From a bacterium (GTDB lineage Bacteria; Babelota; Babeliae; Babelales; JABCYS01), in assembly GCA_027452085.1 (NCBI GenBank), contig DAIDHG010000003.1:16961-33910 (forward strand): DNA of 16,950 nucleotides. Reading direction: 5' to 3'. A program made the translations under genes and the position numbers. The notes beneath the pieces are model-generated. The model was not told where the DNA came from. It was given only the letters and a program-made list of their open reading frames with translations, and ran no database searches. Below, piece by piece: positions 3,128 through 16,741 of this stretch (positions are counted from its first letter, which is position 1; every line of letters begins with the position of its first letter).

Positions 3128-3721
3128 TTACACCATCTCTTCGGGTGGCAACGTAATTTTTTTTCGTGCTTGCAGGCCGGACAATGAAATTTTGGCCGCC
3201 AGCGGTTTATCTTGGTATCTAAATCCTTTTGGCGAATCGATCATTGCCTGTATATCAGCCGATTCATCGATTTTTATATCGATACCCACCTTTTTGCCAT
3301 TACTTAATTTAAAACCTATTGGCGGCACAATGAAATAGCCTTTTTTGGTGCGCACTATAAGAAACGGTTTGCCAAAGACCTTAGGATTTTCCCGCACATA
3401 TGGCCCCTGCCATTTCTCAGGCATCATGAGTTGCATAGAGCCAACTTCATCGCCGACAAATTTCTCAACGTTTAAAAAATCGACGTAATTTTTTTGATGC
3501 TCAAAATTGGCAATTGAGCAGTCAGCATCTATCGATTTGAAAACATCTGAAAGCATCTGAATATCATGAGCTATCACCTCGTCGGCAAAGGTGCGCGATT
3601 CGCGCAGCAAGCCAACTATTGCGATAATGAAAAGGCTCAGAAAAAGCAATACTATGAATATGGGGAATGCGTTATGCCGTATAAAGCGAATAGGCTTACC
3701 AATAAGCGGTCTGTGCTCCAT
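3128..3721 (-). CDS. GspG-like (T2SS major pseudopilin / type IV pilin-like) membrane protein, 197 aa
   Basis: Basic leader, then an N-terminal hydrophobic helix (NAFPIFIVLLFLSLFIIAIVGLL); KWQGPYVRENPKVFGKPF matches the GspG W-x-GPY...P-x-D-PWG-x-PY signature; RBS GGAG/AGGT upstream. Confidence 0.65.
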   Translation of the reverse strand: MEHRPLIGKPIRFIRHNAFPIFIVLLFLSLFIIAIVGLLRESRTFADEVIAHDIQMLSDVFKSIDADCSIANFEHQKNYVDFLNVEKFVGDEVGSMQLMMPEKWQGPYVRENPKVFGKPFLIVRTKKGYFIVPPIGFKLSNGKKVGIDIKIDESADIQAMIDSPKGFRYQDKPLAAKISLSGLQARKKITLPPEEMV

Positions 3722-4854: not shown

Positions 4855-6621
4855 ATGAGTCGACCACCAAAACGCACATTTCATAAAAGGCCACACCGGC
4901 GATCCGATCAACCATTAAGCGATAAAAGCTTTAAGCAAAGGGTTGCCGCAGCTGCGCGTGCATTGCGTGAGCTGGCAGGCGAAACACCCCGACGCGGCGG
5001 TTTTGCGTCGGCAGCAGGCCCCTCATTGCCACAAGTTAATATTAAGAAGCAAGTGCAGTCGAAAATCCAAGAGGCCTTGGATTTGCAGAGTTATAAAGAT
5101 CTTTTTCCTTTGGCACGCGGCATCAAGCGCACCCATACTTTATTAGTTGGCCCCACCAATAGCGGCAAAACCTATCAAGCATTGAATCTATTGACCGGCT
5201 ACAACTCGGGAGCCTATCTCTCGCCATTGCGATTACTGGCGCTTGAAGTACAGGAAGATATTGAAAAACGTGGCAAAGTGTGCTCATTGTTGACCGGAGA
5301 AGAACAGGATATTCGCGAAAATGCGACCTTTGTCTCATCCACCATTGAACTGCTTGCCACCGATACAGAAGTTGATGCGGTATTAGTAGACGAGGCCCAA
5401 TTATTAAGTGATCCAAAACGCGGCTGGGCATGGACTCAGGCCATTGTAGGCGCGCCGGCACGCCATGTTATTATGACCGGATCACCAGAATGCATACCAT
5501 TAATTCGCTATTTAGTTGAAAATTATTTAGGCGAAGAGCTCGAAGTCATTGAAAAGCAGCGGATGAGTGCGTTAAGTTGCCTGAAAGACGCCACCCTCTT
5601 TCTTGAAGCGTTAGAGCCTGGCACTGCCATCATCGCCTTCTCGCGCAAAAAGGTTTTGGCCATCAAGCAATATATTGAACGAAGAGGCAGAAAAGTAAGT
5701 GTGCTCTATGGCAACTTGAGCCCTTCGGCTCGTCGCGAAGAAGCGCGCAGATTTAGAGAAGGTGAGGCAGATCTTTTGGTGGCGACTGATTGTATTGGCA
5801 TGGGCCTTAATCTACCTATTAAAACAGTTATTTTTTCCACCGTATCAAAATTTGATGGCACCTCACAGCGCTATCTGACGCCGCAAGAAGTTAAGCAAAT
5901 TGCTGGCCGCGCTGGCCGTTTTGGAAAATTTGATGGTGGAACCGTAGGCGCCTTTATGAAGCAGGATCTTAAATTCGTCAACGAGTTTCTGCATGCTGCG
6001 CCCACGCCTCCAGAACAGGCGATATTTTACATTGCGCCAACGTTTGAACAGCTGGCCATGATTCGTGAGCATGTGGGGCGACCGATTAATTTATTTGAAG
6101 CCATCTCCATCTTCAGCAAACTGCAATCAGAAGATTTTACGAGCTTTGATTTAAATGAGGCAATGGAGCTTGCTTTACGCATCGAGGATGACAAACTGCT
6201 TTCTCAACTGCCACAGCATGAAAAATTTTCGTTCATTTTTGCGCCCGTCTCAAGCTCAGCCTTAATGGATTATTATTTGGATCATCTGCGCAACTTTACC
6301 AATAAACAGGTAACGCAGTTGGCAGAAAAAGGCATCAAGCCGCTGCTTGATCAAAAATTTACGACCACGGATGAAGAGCTTCACCAAGCTGAAATGTTTG
6401 TGAAAAAGCTGACCATTTACCGTTGGTTGGCCCGCAAACATCCAAAAATGTTCCCAGACCTTATTGCAGCTGAAGAGCTGTCTGATCAACTCAATACCTT
6501 TATCGAAGTTTCATTAAAGCAAAAGAATTTTTCAAAGCGCTGCATGCGCTGCAAACGAGAGCTCAGCTTTATGTGGCCGCATCGTTTATGTGATGAATGC
6601 TTCTTTAGCGGCCGCAGGTAA
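4855..6621 (+). CDS. SUV3-like ATP-dependent RNA helicase (SF2) with a C-terminal CxxC...CxxC zinc motif
   Basis: SUV3-type motifs GPTNSGKTY, PLRLLA, LLTGEE, DEAQ...RGWAWTQA, AFSRK, LYGNL, VATDCIGMGLNL, QIAGRAGR; C-terminus RCMRC...LCDEC. Confidence 0.92.
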   Translation: MSRPPKRTFHKRPHRRSDQPLSDKSFKQRVAAAARALRELAGETPRRGGFASAAGPSLPQVNIKKQVQSKIQEALDLQSYKDLFPLARGIKRTHTLLVGPTNSGKTYQALNLLTGYNSGAYLSPLRLLALEVQEDIEKRGKVCSLLTGEEQDIRENATFVSSTIELLATDTEVDAVLVDEAQLLSDPKRGWAWTQAIVGAPARHVIMTGSPECIPLIRYLVENYLGEELEVIEKQRMSALSCLKDATLFLEALEPGTAIIAFSRKKVLAIKQYIERRGRKVSVLYGNLSPSARREEARRFREGEADLLVATDCIGMGLNLPIKTVIFSTVSKFDGTSQRYLTPQEVKQIAGRAGRFGKFDGGTVGAFMKQDLKFVNEFLHAAPTPPEQAIFYIAPTFEQLAMIREHVGRPINLFEAISIFSKLQSEDFTSFDLNEAMELALRIEDDKLLSQLPQHEKFSFIFAPVSSSALMDYYLDHLRNFTNKQVTQLAEKGIKPLLDQKFTTTDEELHQAEMFVKKLTIYRWLARKHPKMFPDLIAAEELSDQLNTFIEVSLKQKNFSKRCMRCKRELSFMWPHRLCDECFFSGRR

Positions 6622-6728: not shown

Positions 6729-8464
<1,736 letters not shown>

Positions 8465-8661
8465 TGTATAGAGCAAGTCACATAGCATGTAGAAACCTAA
8501 CATTGGTTTTGTTTTATCACAAGCTAAGTCACAACCAGTATATTTACGCTACAACATCTGCATTACATCAACAAAATTAACACTTATTGCTGCAAACCAT
8601 TGCATATATACAGGTATTCGTTTTACGTTGTTGTGTGTTTCTTTGAGTGGGAGTAAAAAAC

Positions 8662-9489
8662 ATGTTTCAAAATTTTCAAAATATGCTCACCTGCTGGTAT
8701 CTATTTGGCTGGCGCATGGCTGTTGAAGTTATATTTTTTGCAGCACTATTTTATTACACGGTAAGTTGGCTGAGCGCAGATAAGCGCAAGAATCTGGTGT
8801 TGTGGTTTTATGGTTATTGTGCGGCGGCATTTGGCGCGCATATCTTACATCTGCCGACCATGGCTCAATTTTTATTCTTATTTGCACCGGCGGCAATCAT
8901 GATCTTTGTGCTGTTTCACCAAGACACGTTGCAGCGCAATTTCATTGTGGCAAAAAATATTACACCAGCACGTCCAACCAATGATTGGCTTGGTGATTTG
9001 ATGGGCGTATTCTTGAGCACCGTTTCAAAAAACAAACCAGTCATCTGTGTTATCGAAAAAACCGATGCTTTATGCACCCTGCTCGCCTCACCGCTTACCT
9101 TTAATACACCAATTCAAAAAAACTTATTAGAGATTTTACTCAACAGCACTGCCTTTGAGTCGCAAAAGATGATCTGGATTAACCACCACGGCCAATTAAT
9201 GGCCTTGAATGCAAGCTGGCACCAACTTGACGATGAATGGTTTAAGAGCGAAATGGGCGACACCCAGGCCTGGAAACAAGATGCCATATTGCTCACCAAT
9301 AAAACTGACGCGCTGGTCTTTAAGATTTCACCGAATCGTATGGTTGATCTGGTGGCACAGCATAAGATGATTGAGCAGGTCTCTATTAATGAAGCATTGC
9401 TCGTGATTAAACAGTATTTGTATGGCAAAGAAAAAAATGAACCGATAGCGGCTGCAAGGAGAGATCATGAACATCAGAAATCTATTTGA
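8662..9489 (+). CDS. cdaA: CdaA/DacA-like membrane diadenylate cyclase homologue with degenerate active site
   Basis: Three N-terminal TM helices ending IFVLFHQDTLQR (canonical IFQPELRR); DAC-like segments VICVIEK, LLEILL, TDALVFKIS; position upstream of ybbR-like and glmM genes. ATG 8662 is preceded by GGGAG. DGA and RHR are absent. Confidence 0.8.
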   Translation: MFQNFQNMLTCWYLFGWRMAVEVIFFAALFYYTVSWLSADKRKNLVLWFYGYCAAAFGAHILHLPTMAQFLFLFAPAAIMIFVLFHQDTLQRNFIVAKNITPARPTNDWLGDLMGVFLSTVSKNKPVICVIEKTDALCTLLASPLTFNTPIQKNLLEILLNSTAFESQKMIWINHHGQLMALNASWHQLDDEWFKSEMGDTQAWKQDAILLTNKTDALVFKISPNRMVDLVAQHKMIEQVSINEALLVIKQYLYGKEKNEPIAAARRDHEHQKSI

Positions 9490-9877
9490 GCAGAAAATCC
9501 TGCTTAAATTCTTTTCCCTTGCCTTCGGCCTCCTTTTTTGGGCAACCTGGGGGGGTAACCAGCCTACTACCATAACCTACCCGGTACCGGTCTGTGCCTA
9601 TGGCAACCAGGCCGATAAGCTCGCCGATTTCCCTGACACCCTGTCCATTACCCTGGCTGGATCACGCAATGAGCTCTATCAGATCGACTTTTCCAAGCTT
9701 GCCTGGCATATAGATACCGAGGGTTTGGCCCAAGGCCCGAACCATATCGAGCCAACCACCCAAGCTCTCTTTTTACCTTCAACGATCAAGGTGCTACACT
9801 GGTCTCCCGCTCCGCTCGTTATTTCGATGCTTGACCCGATAATAGGGCAGGCGGAGCAACAAGAAAAGCTCACATAA
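9467..9877 (+). CDS. cdaR: CdaR/YbbR-like protein (one TM plus a single YbbR domain)
   Basis: LKFFSLAFGLLFW TM anchor, then PV...P.TLSITLAG...IDTEGL..G...LP...WSP, typical of YbbR; RBS AAGGAG; 23-nt overlap with cdaA. Confidence 0.8.
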   Translation: MNIRNLFEQKILLKFFSLAFGLLFWATWGGNQPTTITYPVPVCAYGNQADKLADFPDTLSITLAGSRNELYQIDFSKLAWHIDTEGLAQGPNHIEPTTQALFLPSTIKVLHWSPAPLVISMLDPIIGQAEQQEKLT

Positions 9878-9947
9878 AACTCAGGCAATGGCTCATTACT
9901 GTTTGCCTTGAGCATTTAGCAACATGCATTAAAGGCTGTACACGGCA

Positions 9948-11324
9948 ATGACACAACACGCACAAAACCTCTTCGGCACAGATGGCATTCGTAACACCAT
10001 TGGCAGCTCGCCATTTACCAATAAAGAATTACATGCCCTTGGCGGGGCAATCGGCGCCTGGCTCAGCCAACGGTATCCGACCTCCCCCTTCATTTTGCTG
10101 GCGCATGATACCCGCGTTTCTTGTTCTTGGGTAAAGGCTGCGCTGCAAACGGGCTTATTAATGCACCCGGTGCGCATCTTTGATGCAGAAGTATTGCCAA
10201 CGCCGGCTGTTTCAAAATTATTACAAACCCTTAAAAGCCAAGGTATGCCAATCTCGGTGGGAATTATCATCTCGGCTTCGCACAACCCCTTCCATGACAA
10301 TGGCATCAAAATCGTTACGGTAGATGGCAAACTTTCCCAAAATGATGAGCTGGCGCTCTCAAAATTATATTACGAACAGTTTACCGATTGCTGCGCAAGC
10401 CATATGCATGGCCATCCGCGCGGCATTGCGCAAAGTCTGGTTGCCATCCAAGAAGGCTACATCCATGCCATTGAGAAATTCTTCCCGGAGAAATTTTTAG
10501 AAGGTAAAAAAATCCTACTCGATGGTGCCAACGGAGCTGCATCATGGCTCGCGCCAAAGATCTTCCAACGTCTGGGTGCTTCGGTGATGACCATTAATAA
10601 CAGCCCCTCGGGGATGAATATTAATGACAAATGCGGGGCCCTTCACCCGGAACAGCTTCAAGGAGCAGTACTGCTGCATAAGGCTGACATTGGTTTTGCA
10701 TTTGATGGCGATGGTGACCGCGTCATTGCCGTAGCCTCAAATGGCGAGGTCAAAAACGGTGATGATCTCATGGCAATTCTTACCCAGCATCCAACCTACA
10801 ATCAGAAACGCATTGTTGGCACCATCATGGCCAATGCCGGTTTTGAAACTTATCTCAAAGGCCAAGGCAAAGAGCTGATGCGCACACCGGTGGGCGATAA
10901 ATATGTAGCAGAAGCGATGGCAGCTCAATCGATCACGCTTGGCGGAGAACAATCAGGCCATATTATTTTGGGCGATTACTTAAATACTGGTGATGGCATT
11001 TTTGCCGCACTTCGCGTATGCCAAACCCTCATTCATATCAATGATTGGAGCCTCAACACCTTTACCAAATACCCTCAGGCCTCCACCAACATCTCGGTGC
11101 AAGATAAGAAAGATCTTACAATAACGCCGCTGGCAGATATCATCGCGGCCACCAAAGCCCAGTTGCCTGAGGGCCGTATTGTGGTGCGTTATTCAGGCAC
11201 AGAACCGCTGTTGCGTATTATGGCTGAGGCACCCTCACAGGAAGAAGCGCAACAGGTAGTAAACAGTTTATCTCAACAACTGGGGGCACAGCTTAACAGC
11301 CAAAGGATGCACCATGACGTGTAA
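9948..11324 (+). CDS. glmM: Phosphoglucosamine mutase
   Basis: LFGTDGIR, DTRVS, PTPAV, catalytic SASHNP (Ser codon 10278-10280), metal loop FDGDGDR, VGDKYV, GGEQSGH, TGDG, RYSGTEP are all intact. Confidence 0.96.
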   Translation: MTQHAQNLFGTDGIRNTIGSSPFTNKELHALGGAIGAWLSQRYPTSPFILLAHDTRVSCSWVKAALQTGLLMHPVRIFDAEVLPTPAVSKLLQTLKSQGMPISVGIIISASHNPFHDNGIKIVTVDGKLSQNDELALSKLYYEQFTDCCASHMHGHPRGIAQSLVAIQEGYIHAIEKFFPEKFLEGKKILLDGANGAASWLAPKIFQRLGASVMTINNSPSGMNINDKCGALHPEQLQGAVLLHKADIGFAFDGDGDRVIAVASNGEVKNGDDLMAILTQHPTYNQKRIVGTIMANAGFETYLKGQGKELMRTPVGDKYVAEAMAAQSITLGGEQSGHIILGDYLNTGDGIFAALRVCQTLIHINDWSLNTFTKYPQASTNISVQDKKDLTITPLADIIAATKAQLPEGRIVVRYSGTEPLLRIMAEAPSQEEAQQVVNSLSQQLGAQLNSQRMHHDV

Positions 11325-12762
11325 CAGTTGCGGTGATTGCAGCAATTGCATCCGCCCCGTCAATCTATTTACGCAATCAATGATAGCTGGCGTAGTTGGC
11401 CAAGAACCAATGTCGCATGAAGTGCTGCACTTTTTAGGCAACGCTATTGGTGCCTGGGCTATGGAAGAGTATGGGGCTGAATCGATCATCCTCCTCACCC
11501 ATGATGCAAAAAGCACCTCCCCGTGGATTCGCGCCTGTTTGGAAACGGGGCTCTTGCGCCATCCGTTGTACATCATCAATGAAAATGTAACGGCTACAGG
11601 CATAGCGGCGCATATTACCCAGCGCTATATCGATGATGGAAAAATGATTTCATTTGCCATCATGATTGGCGCAGATCACACCGCGCCGTTGGTCAATGGC
11701 ATTACTCTTGTCGATGGCGATACAGCGTTGCCAATTGATGAAAAAGCACAACGCGCCATTACTAATCACTATTTTGCTATTCATGAATCGTATCATACAC
11801 ATGAAGAGCAGGAAGCTGCAAATCGTGCACCACAAGGCGCTCACTGGTTTATTCCCGACATTAGCAAGCTCTATATTGAAGATATCATTACCGAATTTAC
11901 ACCCGCTGCATTTAAGAAACGAAAAGTTGTGCTTGACTGTGGTGACAGCGTTCTTTCACAGGTGGCACCCTATATTTTCGAGATGTTTGGCGCACACGTA
12001 ATTTCGATCGATAAAGAAAGCATTCAGTATCCTGACCGGCTAGCAAAATTGGTGGAAGAGCATGAAGCAGATATTGGATTTGCATTCAATGGCGATGGCA
12101 CTCGTCTGGTTGCTGCCGCATCAAATGGCGACATTAAAGATGGCGATGACATGCTCGCTGTTTTAATGCGATACACACCTGAAAAGATTTTTGTTACCAC
12201 CGAGATGGCCAACCAAGGGTTAGATGCCTATGCGGCCAAGCGTGGTGTAGAAATTAGACGCGTTGCTGAAGAGCCCTATGCCATTGGTCGCGCCATTAGT
12301 GATATTGACATTGCACATTTAGATACCGCTGATGGGTTATTCATCGGTGCTACCCATGCCGGACACGTGATAATGAGCGGCTATCATTACATGCCAGATG
12401 CATTGTTGGCGGCACTGCGCGTGTGTGCCACCCTGCATAAAACAAAAAATTGGGCATTTAAAACATTTGAAAAATATCCGCGGGTAACGGCAAGCATTCC
12501 GATTGATTTTGCCTGGCCGTTAGAGGATGCGCCGATTGCTGATGTGATTTTGGCCGCTCGCCGTCGCTTTCCAGCCGGCCGAATTTTTGTCTGGTATGAT
12601 ACGCTTGAACCAAAATTACATGTAACCAGCGAACATGCGCACCAAGGCATGGCACATACTGCTGCGGTTGAGCTGGCTACCCAACTGGCTGCCGAGTTTG
12701 CGAAAAAGAAGATACAGCAACAAGTGAGTGGTTTAAAAGTTGAGCCCGAGGCATATTCATAA
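11314..12762 (+). CDS. GlmM paralogue (alpha-D-phosphohexomutase fold) with degenerate catalytic motifs and an N-terminal CxxCxxCxxC
   Basis: Colinear with the upstream GlmM (LGNAIGAW, HD, LETGLLRHP, ADIGFAF, IKDGDD, ALRVC.TL, TFEKYP, GRI.V, TLEP), but SASHN>GADHT, DGDGD>NGDGT, GEQSGH>ATHAGH. Full-length open frame, RBS AAGGA, 11-nt overlap with glmM. Confidence 0.88.
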   Translation: MTCNSCGDCSNCIRPVNLFTQSMIAGVVGQEPMSHEVLHFLGNAIGAWAMEEYGAESIILLTHDAKSTSPWIRACLETGLLRHPLYIINENVTATGIAAHITQRYIDDGKMISFAIMIGADHTAPLVNGITLVDGDTALPIDEKAQRAITNHYFAIHESYHTHEEQEAANRAPQGAHWFIPDISKLYIEDIITEFTPAAFKKRKVVLDCGDSVLSQVAPYIFEMFGAHVISIDKESIQYPDRLAKLVEEHEADIGFAFNGDGTRLVAAASNGDIKDGDDMLAVLMRYTPEKIFVTTEMANQGLDAYAAKRGVEIRRVAEEPYAIGRAISDIDIAHLDTADGLFIGATHAGHVIMSGYHYMPDALLAALRVCATLHKTKNWAFKTFEKYPRVTASIPIDFAWPLEDAPIADVILAARRRFPAGRIFVWYDTLEPKLHVTSEHAHQGMAHTAAVELATQLAAEFAKKKIQQQVSGLKVEPEAYS

Positions 12763-12769
12763 GTAAAGA

Positions 12770-13969
12770 CTATTTCTTGTCTGTAGTGCTTTTCATCTCA
12801 TCGAGCTGCAGTTGAACCTTTTTGCCGATGGCATTAAAAATGCGCATTGATGTTGCGGCGATTAATTCTTGTGCAATTTTAGTTTTTTCCGCAATGGTCA
12901 ACGGCTCGTATTCATCAGTTACTCGATGATGGTCTTTTTTTGCATCGCACGATGGCACAGAATCGGCATCTGCTTCAAGATTCTTTTTAGCCAATTCTGT
13001 CACCCGATGCTGAGCTTCTAAATCTGCGCGATACAGTAATGCATTTAATAATAAGCGCGCGGCAGCTGGCATTGAAAATTGAAATAGTTTGCGAATGGCT
13101 GAAATACAATGCTGCACCTCAACAACGGTATGGGCAGTCGCAATACATTTATATGCCTGAAGGCCCATTGCCAAAACTTTTACTTCATATGAATCACACA
13201 CCGATTTATAGGCCTCTTGGTACAATGTGCCATCATTGTGCTCTGCCTGAGCTCCTAAAAAGCCAGCATTTGCACAGGCAGAGAGGTAGACGCATGCTAA
13301 TTGACGCGCCGCTACGTCTTTGGTTTGATTTGCTGCAATCTTTAACAATTCATAGCCAGGGCTCAAATGATAGTTCTCCAAGCCCATGCCCAATAATAAT
13401 ATCTGACCGAGCCGCATAACCGATGTCATTGGCGCGTCTGGTTGTTTTTGCAACTCGTTAATGATGCGTAGCGCTTCGTTATAATTTGGTTTTACGCCTT
13501 CGCCATTTATATAGCAATTCAGCAGTTGCGTTTCAGCTTCATGAAATAGACTTTGATGCGGTTCGGCCGTTGCCGATGCATGCTCATAAAAATCTGTTGC
13601 TTGCCGCAACATTTTTTTTCTTTGACCGCCAGACAATAATTGTGCGTATCGTTTACAAATATTGCCGGTCTGCAGATATATAAGGCCGAGTGAAGCTGGC
13701 AATACAAACTGATCAGATGCTGTTGGTTGCGGCGTATTTTCTACCCATGCATTCCCTGACAATACCTTACCGGCCAAGCAACGGGCGCACGGATGTTCAT
13801 CATTATCCGTTGCATCGCATTCCATGACGTGCTGCTGCCAGGCAAGATATTCTTTTTTGCTCAGCCGCGACTGTTCAGGAACCGAACTAGTGCTTGTCGC
13901 CTGCAGATCAAACGATGGTAAAACAATTACACAGGTGAACAGTGCAACTGACACATTAAAGCGAATCAT
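12770..13969 (-). CDS. Secreted Sel1-like-repeat (SLR) protein, paralogue A, 399 aa
   Basis: Signal-peptide-like N-terminus; EAETQLLNCYINGEGVKPNYNEAL is a Sel1 repeat; RLGQILLLG...LLKIAANQ is a second degenerate repeat. Confidence 0.8.
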   Translation of the reverse strand: MIRFNVSVALFTCVIVLPSFDLQATSTSSVPEQSRLSKKEYLAWQQHVMECDATDNDEHPCARCLAGKVLSGNAWVENTPQPTASDQFVLPASLGLIYLQTGNICKRYAQLLSGGQRKKMLRQATDFYEHASATAEPHQSLFHEAETQLLNCYINGEGVKPNYNEALRIINELQKQPDAPMTSVMRLGQILLLGMGLENYHLSPGYELLKIAANQTKDVAARQLACVYLSACANAGFLGAQAEHNDGTLYQEAYKSVCDSYEVKVLAMGLQAYKCIATAHTVVEVQHCISAIRKLFQFSMPAAARLLLNALLYRADLEAQHRVTELAKKNLEADADSVPSCDAKKDHHRVTDEYEPLTIAEKTKIAQELIAATSMRIFNAIGKKVQLQLDEMKSTTDKK

Positions 13970-13981
13970 AGTCTATCTCAT

Positions 13982-14983
13982 TTATTTCTTGCTGATGTTG
14001 GTAAGCTGCATAGCAATGCCAACCGTATGCAACAATTGGCAATCGTGCTGTTGCGAAAGCTCCGCGATATACTCTTTCTTGAGCTCATCCGATACACCGC
14101 AGGCAAGCGATCGCTCAGATTCGCCGCGCTGTGCCATTTCCTTCATGGTAATCTCAACAACTCGATCGCAGCCATCTTCATCAGCTTTAATAAGCAATAT
14201 TTTGCCCAGCAATTGTATTGCCAACGATGAGGCTTTTTCGGTCATAGAGTGCAGTGAACGCAATATATTCATATATTTCTCTGCAGATTCAGCAGCAAGA
14301 GAAGCTTTAAACGTATCTACCAGGCGGGCCAAGGTCTTTGCTTCGGCATCAGCATGCTTTTCCTTTAAGATCTGTGCATGCAGGTCAGCTTCTACTGGCA
14401 CTGACAGCAGGCCACAGGCATTAAAAGCAGCCAAATAACCGCGCGCGAGCGTTTGTGCACGAATATTTTCTTGCTGGCCCACAACCTGCAAAAGCAGCTC
14501 TGTCCCAGCCTTACGATCATATTTTTTAATCCCTTGGCCTAGAAAGGTCATTTGACCAAGGCGCAGTTTACCCAGCCACTGTGCTTGCGTATGCTCTTTT
14601 TGCTCAGCTATTGATTGTGCATGTTTAAATGCCTTTGCGTAATCGATATTGACGCCCAAACCATGAAGATATGCTTCCATCAACTGGGTTTCTGCTTCAG
14701 AGCGAATGCCGCGCATTCTTGAGTTGGCAGCCTTTTTATAAAATTGGACTGCTTGCTCTTCCGATTCTTTGCTCTCTTGTTGTGATGCTCGAGACTTATA
14801 GAGATCAGCAGTCGTCAAAAAAATCAGATCTACAGCCGCCGGGCGGTAGCTCTGTGCCTGTGGCGCGGTGCGTAAAATCGTTTCTTGCTCTTTAGATTCA
14901 CTAACCAATTTTGCGAAGCCGCTGGTGCCATATGCGCTTACCGCACATAGAATTAAGGGCATAAGAAGATAGGTATGAAACAT
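13982..14983 (-). CDS. Secreted Sel1-like-repeat protein, paralogue B, 333 aa
   Basis: Signal peptide (…LCAVSAYG); AVQFYKKAA, EAETQLMEAYLHGLGVNIDYAKAF, RLGQMTFLGQGIK; RBS GGAGG. Confidence 0.85.
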   Translation of the reverse strand: MFHTYLLMPLILCAVSAYGTSGFAKLVSESKEQETILRTAPQAQSYRPAAVDLIFLTTADLYKSRASQQESKESEEQAVQFYKKAANSRMRGIRSEAETQLMEAYLHGLGVNIDYAKAFKHAQSIAEQKEHTQAQWLGKLRLGQMTFLGQGIKKYDRKAGTELLLQVVGQQENIRAQTLARGYLAAFNACGLLSVPVEADLHAQILKEKHADAEAKTLARLVDTFKASLAAESAEKYMNILRSLHSMTEKASSLAIQLLGKILLIKADEDGCDRVVEITMKEMAQRGESERSLACGVSDELKKEYIAELSQQHDCQLLHTVGIAMQLTNISKK

Positions 14984-15106: not shown

Positions 15107-16741
15107 CTATTGTGGATCTTGCGGAACTATAAGCTCGCGGTAACTATTTCTTAAATTGGTCATTAATTCATACAGATTGGCAATCTCTTCAAATTCCTCG
15201 CCTGTCAGCTCTTCAAAACGTTCAATAAAATTTTGAAGAGAATCAGCTGTAATCTGCATTGCACATGCCTTCACCTCATTATCCGCTAACAGCTCATCTA
15301 ATTGCCTTAAAGCGCGTTGTTGGTGATCTGCAAATACAACCACCATATTTGGATCATTCAGCAGTATACACAGATGTAGCTTTACCTGTAGACGACTATC
15401 TACATCGCGTAGCGTAGTTCCAGCGCTTTTGCTCTCAAAAAGCTCAATTAATGTCCTTAAAGCAGGCAACAGGGATACAGCAAAACCAGAGACATTGCGA
15501 TAATTAATGAGCCACACCAAATCGTTTTTTAACTGAAGTTGGCCAAAGATAGGATTTAAATCTCTGTATATCAAACACATGAGCTCCAGTAACTTACCGA
15601 TTTCTCCCCTTTTGCAGAGCAAGCTTTTCTGCGTATCTAATGCGGATATTGCGCTTAAAGGAACAACTCGTTGGGCTAAAAGCGACGAAGATATTTCTGA
15701 TAGCTTTTGAGGCGAAAAATGATCAAACAATTCATGCCCTGCGATATGATATTGTACCAATCTTATGAACTCCCAAATCAGTTCCGTTACCTGAGGCAAC
15801 GGGCTTAATGGCATAAAAACAGCACCACACTTTTTGTCTATATCTAACAATAATGTGTTGGCTAGAATGCGTACCTGCTCTGGGGCATCAGCAATAGAGT
15901 TTACTGCAAGTATCATTTGATTAATCCGTTCCCTGGAAATTGGTATCCGGCTGGTGACCTCAGCATAGAGATTGAGAACTTTGGTCAAGGAATTGATCTC
16001 GCTGCGCGAATGAGTTGCTCGAGGATTATCTCGCGCGGCTAATGCAGTTACTTCCCCTATATGCACATCATAAAAAAGGTCTGGATGTAGGTGCATCGCC
16101 ACGAGCAAATAGAGTTGGGATAACTGGCGCACCGTTGCATCGGGGGAAAATTGAGCAGTCTTCAATAATATTTTTTTGCCATACAGCACTGTATTTTTAG
16201 AAAAATAGGGCGCCTGCCCTAACAGACTCATCTGGCCTAACCGTGCACCAACTGACCATGTTAATGAATCATGCGGCTGGGAAAGCAACCGTTCTCCAAA
16301 GGTGAAAGCTCGCGGTGCATTTCTCTCTACCCCGTTGCCTAAGAGATAACATTCCATCATGCGAAAACGAGCAAATCGGTTATAGCTATGCTCCCCTTGC
16401 GCAAGCCGCCCAAACCAGTTAAATGCTAACTTATATGATTCCCGCTTTTCATGCACATTTTGACTATCTTCTGCTTGTTTGAGGTATGCTTCAGCCAGCT
16501 CTGCATAAATCGGCGCGCTCGCCACGAGCGGCAAATGGGAAATATCCATCTCCCTTGCTTGCTGTTTAGCCCGTGGTGAAAGCTCATCATGCTGCGTTAT
16601 CAGCTGGTGCGCTCGTTTTTTAGTCGTATTACTTTGATTTTTTTGCCCATCAATAGGCGTGCCAGAATTGCTGCTTGTCAGCGTATATACCGGCGCAAGA
16701 AACGAAATAACAAGAATATAATTTTTAAGGCATTGTGACAT
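15107..16741 (-). CDS. Secreted Sel1-like-repeat protein, paralogue C, 544 aa, with a long unique helical C-terminus
   Basis: Hydrophobic N-terminal leader; AFNWFGRLA, ARFRMMECYLLGNGVERNAPRAF, RLGQMSLLG; RBS GGAAGGA. Confidence 0.8.
   Translation of the reverse strand: MSQCLKNYILVISFLAPVYTLTSSNSGTPIDGQKNQSNTTKKRAHQLITQHDELSPRAKQQAREMDISHLPLVASAPIYAELAEAYLKQAEDSQNVHEKRESYKLAFNWFGRLAQGEHSYNRFARFRMMECYLLGNGVERNAPRAFTFGERLLSQPHDSLTWSVGARLGQMSLLGQAPYFSKNTVLYGKKILLKTAQFSPDATVRQLSQLYLLVAMHLHPDLFYDVHIGEVTALAARDNPRATHSRSEINSLTKVLNLYAEVTSRIPISRERINQMILAVNSIADAPEQVRILANTLLLDIDKKCGAVFMPLSPLPQVTELIWEFIRLVQYHIAGHELFDHFSPQKLSEISSSLLAQRVVPLSAISALDTQKSLLCKRGEIGKLLELMCLIYRDLNPIFGQLQLKNDLVWLINYRNVSGFAVSLLPALRTLIELFESKSAGTTLRDVDSRLQVKLHLCILLNDPNMVVVFADHQQRALRQLDELLADNEVKACAMQITADSLQNFIERFEELTGEEFEEIANLYELMTNLRNSYRELIVPQDPQ

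Follow-up and report, generated by a model that had tools for sequence, protein, structure and literature searches.

In a 16,950-nt stretch of DNA from an uncultured bacterium with a small genome (the window, G000:C3:16961-33910, from an assembly of 982,780 bases in 88 contigs that is 92.9% complete), four co-oriented genes on the plus strand form a block, 8662-12762, whose products resemble the components of the CdaA-CdaR-GlmM module for synthesis of cyclic diadenosine monophosphate (c-di-AMP). The first, cdaA* (8662-9489), encodes a 275-amino acid (aa) homologue of the diadenylate cyclase CdaA that is dead by its motifs; the second, ybbR* (9467-9877, 136 aa), a minimal counterpart of the membrane partner CdaR; the third, glmM (9948-11324, 458 aa), a phosphoglucosamine mutase with all catalytic motifs intact; and the fourth, glmM2* (11314-12762, 482 aa), a paralogue of that enzyme in which these motifs are lost and which has a new N-terminal cysteine motif and C-terminal tail. 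The first and second genes overlap by 23 nt and the third and fourth by 11 nt, with a gap of 70 nt between the second and third. The block is flanked by a divergent DUF1016_N gene (7736-8503, minus strand) and a convergent open reading frame (ORF) of 399 aa (12770-13969, minus strand). An annotation made from the letters only, here called the sequence-only reading, had described four co-oriented genes with two overlapping junctions, the first and last of them devoid of their catalytic motifs, and the ORF map and the homology searches described below bear out this layout and all four gene identities. That the altered proteins are maintained by selection and non-catalytic, in a lineage without c-di-AMP synthesis, is very probable. 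What they do instead is the subject of the later part of this account. The comparisons were made with genomes of the same order and phylum, all of 0.8-2.4 Mb, in two sets: 41 relatives, and 201 genomes sampled across the phylum (177 of which are at least 90% complete).

The relationship of CdaA* to CdaA is apparent only at the level of profiles. Scanned alone, the window protein has no Pfam match (the gathering threshold of the Pfam diadenylate cyclase domain, DAC, is not reached) and NCBIfam gives only CdaM, at E 0.13. A word-index search returned just nine relatives, none carrying a Pfam domain. A HMMER profile made from these nine finds 588 cluster representatives at E<=1e-3, 305 of them at E<=1e-30, and when a profile of 143 representatives was compared with PDB, all 17 matches (E<=0.01) were DAC proteins: 14 named as diadenylate cyclase or c-di-AMP synthase, two as DAC domain-containing, and one an unnamed Bacillus cereus membrane protein, 2fb5. 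The best of them is full-length Lactococcus lactis CdaA (9g69_C, E 2.5e-12), to whose residues 30-273 positions 17-259 of the profile are colinear, starting within the first membrane helix and taking in the DAC domain to its end; the nine-sequence profile gives the same top three PDB matches, at E 0.006-0.05. Singly scanned (E<=0.01), 23 of the 143 representatives match Pfam DAC (PF02457) and 22 match CdaA_N (PF19293). An AlphaFold2 (AF2) model of CdaA*, with a mean predicted local distance difference test score (pLDDT) of 66 and values of 73-86 over most of the DAC part, gave listed Foldseek matches that are all CdaA, DacA, DacM or 2fb5 (best E 2.2e-9, TM-score by target 0.72). The Protein Atlas places CdaA* relatives in unnamed clusters and in clusters partly with DAC/CdaA_N, which is consistent and adds little.

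The protein has three hydrophobic, presumably membrane, helices (residues 14-30, 45-62 and 70-86), a juxtamembrane helix, HQDTLQRNF, at 86-94 and a DAC-fold domain from about 106 to 256. Its start may be the ATG at 8662, which gives the 275-aa form of the protein databases, or a GTG at 8647, which would give 280 aa. The chemistry has gone from the DAC-fold domain. In the HMMER alignments H-D-G-A of CdaA is set against e-k-m-i of the CdaA* profile, T-R-H-R-A-A against k-w-k-q-d-a and S-E-E-T-G against n-p-e-t-r; in the window protein DGA is replaced by Q-K-M, RHR by W-K-Q and the SEETG region by S-P-N-R, with the metal-binding Glu replaced. Relatives with intact motifs, whose existence would have pointed to recent decay, were sought and none was found, DGA or RHR being kept in 0 of 25 CdaA* members from 25 genomes. 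As the replaced DGA, RHR and Glu positions also vary from one member to another, the former nucleotide pocket is not under constraint, and the loss of motifs predicts that CdaA* does not synthesise c-di-AMP.

Selection on CdaA* has its focus elsewhere, in the membrane helices and in the amphipathic helix next to the membrane. Across the 143 representatives 29 positions are at least 80% conserved, 19 of them within residues 1-97; they include E22, Y31, W36 and D40, an invariant P76 in helix 3 and an invariant H86, and, in the juxtamembrane helix, L90, Q91 and N93. Mean entropy is 1.25 bits in that helix versus about 2.5 bits in the DAC-fold part, where the nearly invariant positions are few (E132, G177, N183 and D216). 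For true CdaA, Foster et al. (PMC11686323) note high conservation of the amphipathic stretch and a possible regulatory role for it, and give helix 3 as the predicted tetramer interface.

YbbR* has one hydrophobic helix (residues 11-27) followed by about 100 further residues. On its own it falls below threshold with Pfam YbbR (E 0.094), and only two of 23 orthologues reach that family at E<=0.01. A profile of the 23 orthologues matches 5hqh_A, the 'Lmo2119 protein', over 34-126 with E 2.1e-7, and a YbbR family protein, 2l3u, comes second at E 0.002. Lmo2119 we take to be the CdaR of Listeria. CdaR proteins of Firmicutes have several tandem YbbR domains; the match in the 136 aa of YbbR* is to one domain and not to several in tandem, so that the description 'minimal' is apt. 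The gene directly follows cdaA*, here and in relatives.

The third gene is of the active type, as the sequence-only reading had it. Its product carries all four PGM_PMM domains of Pfam, and although its score with TIGR01455, 397 bits, is under the equivalog cut-off of 447.55, this is still the best family by far; solved GlmMs are matched at E 8e-78. FGTDGIR, SASHNP (with the catalytic Ser), DGDGDR (the Mg loop), GEQSGH (the sugar loop) and RYSGTEP (the phosphate loop) are all intact. It is the sole intact phosphohexomutase found in the genome, and as GlmS, GlmU and MurA each score over cut-off there, the pathway around GlmM is intact.

In the fourth gene product each of these motifs is altered: FGTDGIR reads FTQSMIAG, SASHNP reads GADHTA (the catalytic Ser being replaced by Asp), DGDGDR reads NGDGTR with two of the three Mg-binding Asp residues lost, the sugar loop GEQSGH reads ATHAGH and the phosphate loop RYSGTEP reads WYDTLEP. 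Domain 2 has a 10-aa deletion of the PSGxNIN..CG loop, domain 3 has two inserts, and Pfam sees PGM_PMM domains I-III only (TIGR01455, 143 bits). An alignment has the same motif losses in all three orthologues. The fold is kept: the AF2 model (pLDDT 75.8, predicted TM-score 0.70) retains the four-domain build, its low-confidence parts being the N-terminus, the former active-site loop at 121-128, the inserts and the last nine residues, and its best Foldseek matches are GlmMs (E 2e-29, TM-score by target 0.70-0.74). The most conserved parts of GlmM2* are at its two ends. The N-terminal CNSCGDCSNC (CxxCxxCxxC) has its four Cys kept in the three orthologues, with 14-16 of the first 17 aligned columns identical, and the last 24 residues are 24/24 identical across the three; the tail differs between the window's genome (G000) and its congener G001 at 11 of 72 nucleotides, all of the differences being synonymous. 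The domain-2 helix that corresponds to the D151/E154 helix of Bacillus subtilis GlmM reads HWFIPDISK, with an Asp at the E154 column, and is nearly identical in the three orthologues, a small lead rather than a result. The idea that GlmM2* is a membrane or secreted protein was considered and rejected, no hydrophobic segment rising above 1.4 (a judgement made from hydrophobicity only).

GlmM2* is confined to one genus, and three sequences of it are known. Only G000 and G001 have a second GlmM-like gene beside the first; G003, of the same family, and the others have one. A search of 5.8 billion proteins gave two close relatives only, at 78% and 76% identity, with the next match at 32%, and a scan of genome contigs returned only the G001 contig. 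In a tree of GlmMs the stem branch of GlmM2* measures 2.92 substitutions per site as against 0.46 for GlmM1 of the genus, and its terminal branches (0.16 and 0.12) are short, like those of GlmM1 (0.22 and 0.14); the long stem with short tips points to a burst of change and then constraint. In the best maximum-likelihood tree GlmM2* falls together with GlmM1 of the genus on weak support (59/10), which, with the long branch, leaves the placement unsure, so that an origin by tandem duplication of glmM is only consistent with the data. Horizontal origin was also considered and is not preferred, given that the best tree joins GlmM2* to the GlmM1 of its genus, though weakly and with the placement unsure. 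A literature search at the level of titles and abstracts found neither a dead CdaA of this phylum nor a dead GlmM paralogue.

The sequence-only reading had suggested a search of the genome for other DACs, c-di-AMP phosphodiesterases and receptors, and none was found. Pfam DAC is over its cut-off in 0 of the 201 phylum genomes, the best sub-threshold score being 25.3 bits against a cut-off of 27, in a search whose control was positive in 11 of 14 known genomes; among the 41 relatives it is likewise over cut-off in none, and the six sub-threshold matches all lie inside CdaA* ORFs. In the window's genome no DAC domain, PgpH-type seven-transmembrane (7TM) domain, PstA/DarA receptor or c-di-AMP (ydaO) riboswitch was found, the receptor search covering PstA/DarA and the ydaO riboswitch and not the RCK_C or CBS receptor types. 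Its sole DHHA1 protein is RecJ (TIGR00644, 507 bits), and PstA/DarA is found in 0 of the 41 relatives. As the assembly is 92.9% complete, absences in this genome count as 'not found' and not as proven. Judged by such domain searches, the lineage is shown no longer to make c-di-AMP with any recognisable cyclase.

CdaA*, nearly always in a single copy, is present in 25 of the 41 relatives and in 146 of the 201 phylum genomes (133 of the 177 that are at least 90% complete). It was not found in families f3 (0/4), f6 (0/9), f7 (0/2), f14 (0/1), f16 (0/3) and f18 (0/4), and in f11 it was found in 1 of 23. The 25 relatives with CdaA* are precisely those with YbbR*, which was found in 0 of the other 16; because related genomes are not independent, this match shows co-inheritance and co-loss and is not to be treated as a statistic. 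Among 24 relatives holding the pair, glmM is directly downstream in 18, across many families, and in one more, G040, glmM follows ybbR* and 5.6 kb separates cdaA* from ybbR*. (The G040 insert between cdaA* and ybbR*-glmM, L022:3311-8885, has ORFs of 147, 401, 429 and 429 aa.) In G015 the pair is on a short contig and the adjacency of glmM could not be scored. Synteny in related genomes was put forward as a check in the sequence-only reading: the pair together with glmM is common (18/24), the pair occurs without an adjacent glmM in two families, f4 and f19, and among these genomes glmM2* is found in G000 and G001 only. What did not survive was the treatment of the four genes as one unit, since cdaA*-ybbR*(-glmM) is ancient and phylum-wide, whereas the dead GlmM is much younger and belongs to one genus.

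Purifying selection acts on each of the four genes. In the comparison of G000 with G001 the proportions of nonsynonymous and synonymous differences (pN/pS) are 0.119/0.776 for cdaA*, 0.194/0.632 for ybbR*, 0.157/0.750 for glmM and 0.129/0.747 for glmM2*, ratios of 0.15-0.31 in which the synonymous sites are saturated (pS 0.63-0.78); a ratio near 1 had been named beforehand as a result that would speak against the sequence-only reading. With pN 0.129 for glmM2* and 0.157 for glmM, the dead GlmM is at least as constrained as the live copy. The corresponding pN of trpS is 0.082, and that of two fast-evolving neighbours downstream of the block is 0.48.

Those two neighbours are the 399-aa ORF already mentioned, which has no family, and a Sel1-repeat protein of 333 aa (13982-14983, minus strand). 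Both are syntenic in G001 with only about 30% identity, as compared with 76-89% for neighbouring housekeeping genes; being fast-evolving, they may be host-interaction proteins. On the other side of the block, the DUF1016_N protein has 255 aa versus 386 aa for the syntenic ORF of G001, with 49% identity over 174 residues, and may be truncated or lack a C-terminal domain. The intergenic region between its gene and cdaA* (8504-8661, plus strand on the ORF map) is the presumed promoter region. It contains a single sigma-70-like match (9/12, at 8516-8544), and a promoter and terminator scan of 8300-13000 found no excess over shuffled sequences, with seven sigma-70-like matches versus a mean of 8.5. 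Further upstream, 4855-6621 (plus strand) encodes a helicase of 588 aa whose domains are of the Suv3 type (DEXQc_Suv3 E 1.8e-46, Helicase_C, SUV3_C E 5.6e-9), a family best known for its part in mitochondrial RNA turnover. No Pfam or NCBIfam match was obtained for the minus-strand ORFs at 15107-16741 (544 aa), 3128-3721 (197 aa) and 120-656 (178 aa).

The retention of an operon with a dead cyclase, its partner, a working GlmM and a dead GlmM indicates that the proteins of the module probably serve a conserved function for which c-di-AMP is not required. A starting point for what this function may be is provided by Firmicutes, in which, according to two reports (PMC8573169; PMC11686323), GlmM binds and inhibits CdaA, its dimer docking to the CdaA DAC dimer through GlmM domain 2. 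CdaA* and YbbR* are co-inherited membrane proteins with glmM usually in the same operon, and they might form a membrane-anchored, non-catalytic sensor or scaffold pair, with the YbbR* domain facing outward and the DAC-fold domain of CdaA* facing inward, in which the ancestral protein-protein side of the CdaA-CdaR-GlmM module would be kept. Influenced by the outward YbbR*, CdaA* would dock or regulate GlmM at the membrane and would thereby link the status of the envelope to the supply of UDP-N-acetylglucosamine and peptidoglycan precursors. In this genus glmM would have been duplicated in tandem, one copy keeping catalysis and the other losing its catalytic motifs and specialising in binding (a subfunctionalisation of a moonlighting enzyme), with the Cys4 head and invariant tail of GlmM2* gained as new contact or metal sites. 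That the CdaA-CdaR-GlmM complex was kept as a scaffold, as the sequence-only reading proposed, is plausible. As a whole, a messenger-free scaffold or sensor pair acting on GlmM, with GlmM2* as a binding copy, is the best explanation available, at a probability of roughly 0.45.

Several observations weigh against it. The confidence of the CdaA* model is only moderate (mean pLDDT 66). In four relatives (G006 and G026 of f4, G021 and G038 of f19) the pair has no adjacent glmM, and these relatives have only a more divergent GlmM-like gene elsewhere, scoring 171-193 bits with TIGR01455. Of the 16 relatives in which no pair was found, 15 keep GlmM (none was seen in the other, the fragmented G002), which means that GlmM can do without the pair. 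More weakly, the residues of the B. subtilis CdaA-GlmM salt bridges are not conserved: R126 of CdaA (R139 in 9g69_C) is K123 here and D, N, R or N in relatives, and D151, E154 and D195 of GlmM are S163, A166 and R208 of the third gene product, at columns that are variable in the GlmMs of the phylum. Finally, the role of GlmM2* cannot be a general one, since only three sequences of it, all from one genus, are known. With the interface residues not kept, and with the pair and glmM each found apart, a mechanism that runs through the binding of GlmM is given a chance somewhat short of even.

Similar odds are given to the strongest alternative, which is also a serious possibility: that the pair does a GlmM-independent job at the membrane or envelope through its transmembrane and linker part, for instance by working with a second membrane protein in gating, sensing or assembly. 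The adjacency of glmM would then be inherited order only, and GlmM2* would be in an unrelated binding role by way of its Cys4 head and tail. The concentration of the most conserved CdaA* positions in the membrane part and linker is as this alternative would have it, and so are the loss of the Firmicute interface residues and the occurrence of GlmM without the pair. In f4 and f19, moreover, a gene for a DUF502 membrane protein adjoins in place of glmM: in G021 (L031:3521-4153, E 3e-29) it is directly after ybbR*, and in G006 (L028:2933-3562, E 6e-30) it is about 0.8 kb downstream, beyond an opposite-strand ORF of 195 aa. Mere inheritance of gene order is harder to reconcile with glmM directly downstream in 18 of 24 pair-holding relatives of many families, and a job confined to the membrane part with a DAC-fold domain that is still full-length and foldable in all members. 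Nor would it lead one to expect a dead GlmM to arise and persist in this very operon, overlapping its live counterpart by 11 nt.

Far less probable is that CdaA* still handles a nucleotide, either as a cyclase with non-canonical residues or as a receptor of a nucleotide, perhaps host-derived, in which case signalling has not been lost. The DAC fold does appear, from the model, to be retained, and E132, G177, N183 and D216 are nearly invariant. Against this, the catalytic positions (DGA, RHR and the metal-binding Glu) have been substituted and differ from member to member, the invariant residues of the domain correspond in the HMMER alignments to the structural core of CdaA (the D of SDAL and the (I)E of GALIVIE), and no phosphodiesterase, receptor or riboswitch was found. 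That cdaA* and glmM2* are pseudogenes in decay, or artefacts of assembly or annotation, which their missing motifs and the fragmentation of the assembly into 88 contigs might suggest and which the sequence-only reading had asked to be checked, is excluded for practical purposes by open, full-length frames, by pN/pS of 0.15-0.17 for cdaA* and glmM2*, by the conservation of CdaA* in 146 of 201 genomes and by the presence of GlmM2*, at 76-78% identity, in three assemblies made independently, its tail differing between G000 and G001 at synonymous sites only.

If the reading in which the pair acts as a messenger-free scaffold on GlmM is followed further, it leads to a more general proposal, on balance unlikely and offered as speculation: that the ancestral function of the module was itself independent of c-di-AMP, with a YbbR sensor and a CdaA membrane scaffold tuning GlmM and hence the flow of amino sugar to the cell wall; a phylum without the messenger would lay this function bare, and one genus would have handed the binding role of GlmM to a non-catalytic paralogue. 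Why cdaA, cdaR and glmM are linked, what CdaR senses, and the role of the CdaA membrane domain and linker are questions to which the c-di-AMP field has no clear answers. Here is a whole phylum of host-dependent bacteria without a recognisable diadenylate cyclase, and in it a CdaA* family of 588 representatives that has shed the chemistry and kept its fold, its linker, its membrane part and its partner and, in most cases, the linkage to glmM. The family is a natural separation-of-function system, whose remaining function should be the non-enzymatic part of the module. GlmM2* would, if the proposal is right, amount to a natural mutant in which the functions of a moonlighting enzyme are separated: should it bind CdaA*, it would be direct evolutionary evidence that the partner role of GlmM is selectable apart from catalysis, and if its invariant tail binds another partner instead, bacterial phosphohexomutases would have a new pseudo-enzyme among them.

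The closest known system is the CdaA (DacA)-CdaR (YbbR)-GlmM module of Bacillota (B. subtilis, Listeria monocytogenes lmo2120-2118, Staphylococcus aureus and L. lactis). The gene order is shared, as are a CdaA with three transmembrane helices, an amphipathic linker and a DAC fold, a partner with an N-terminal transmembrane helix and a YbbR domain, and a glmM downstream. The module described here differs in the loss of DGA, RHR and the metal-binding Glu, in having one YbbR domain and an extra, dead GlmM, in that genes for c-di-AMP turnover and reception were not found, and in the lack of conservation of R126, D151, E154 and D195.

Loss of catalysis with retention of the protein has precedents. 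Degenerate GGDEF and EAL proteins of cyclic di-GMP (c-di-GMP) signalling no longer catalyse and are retained in scaffold or receptor roles; in those cases the messenger is still made and is often bound, whereas here the pocket is free of constraint and the messenger system seems to have disappeared. For GlmM2* a parallel is PGM5 (aciculin), a non-catalytic vertebrate paralogue of phosphoglucomutase, which has the alpha-D-phosphohexomutase fold and acts as a binding protein. Unlike it, GlmM2* is bacterial and is encoded in an operon with an active copy and a dead cyclase, and its Mg, sugar and phosphate loops are lost too. A more particular likeness is to the engineered S108D variant of Pseudomonas aeruginosa PMM/PGM, solved with glucose 1,6-bisphosphate (PDB 2fkm): the natural change of the catalytic Ser to Asp in GlmM2* matches it in both site and substitution, and that structure could help to model what the dead site of GlmM2* can still bind.

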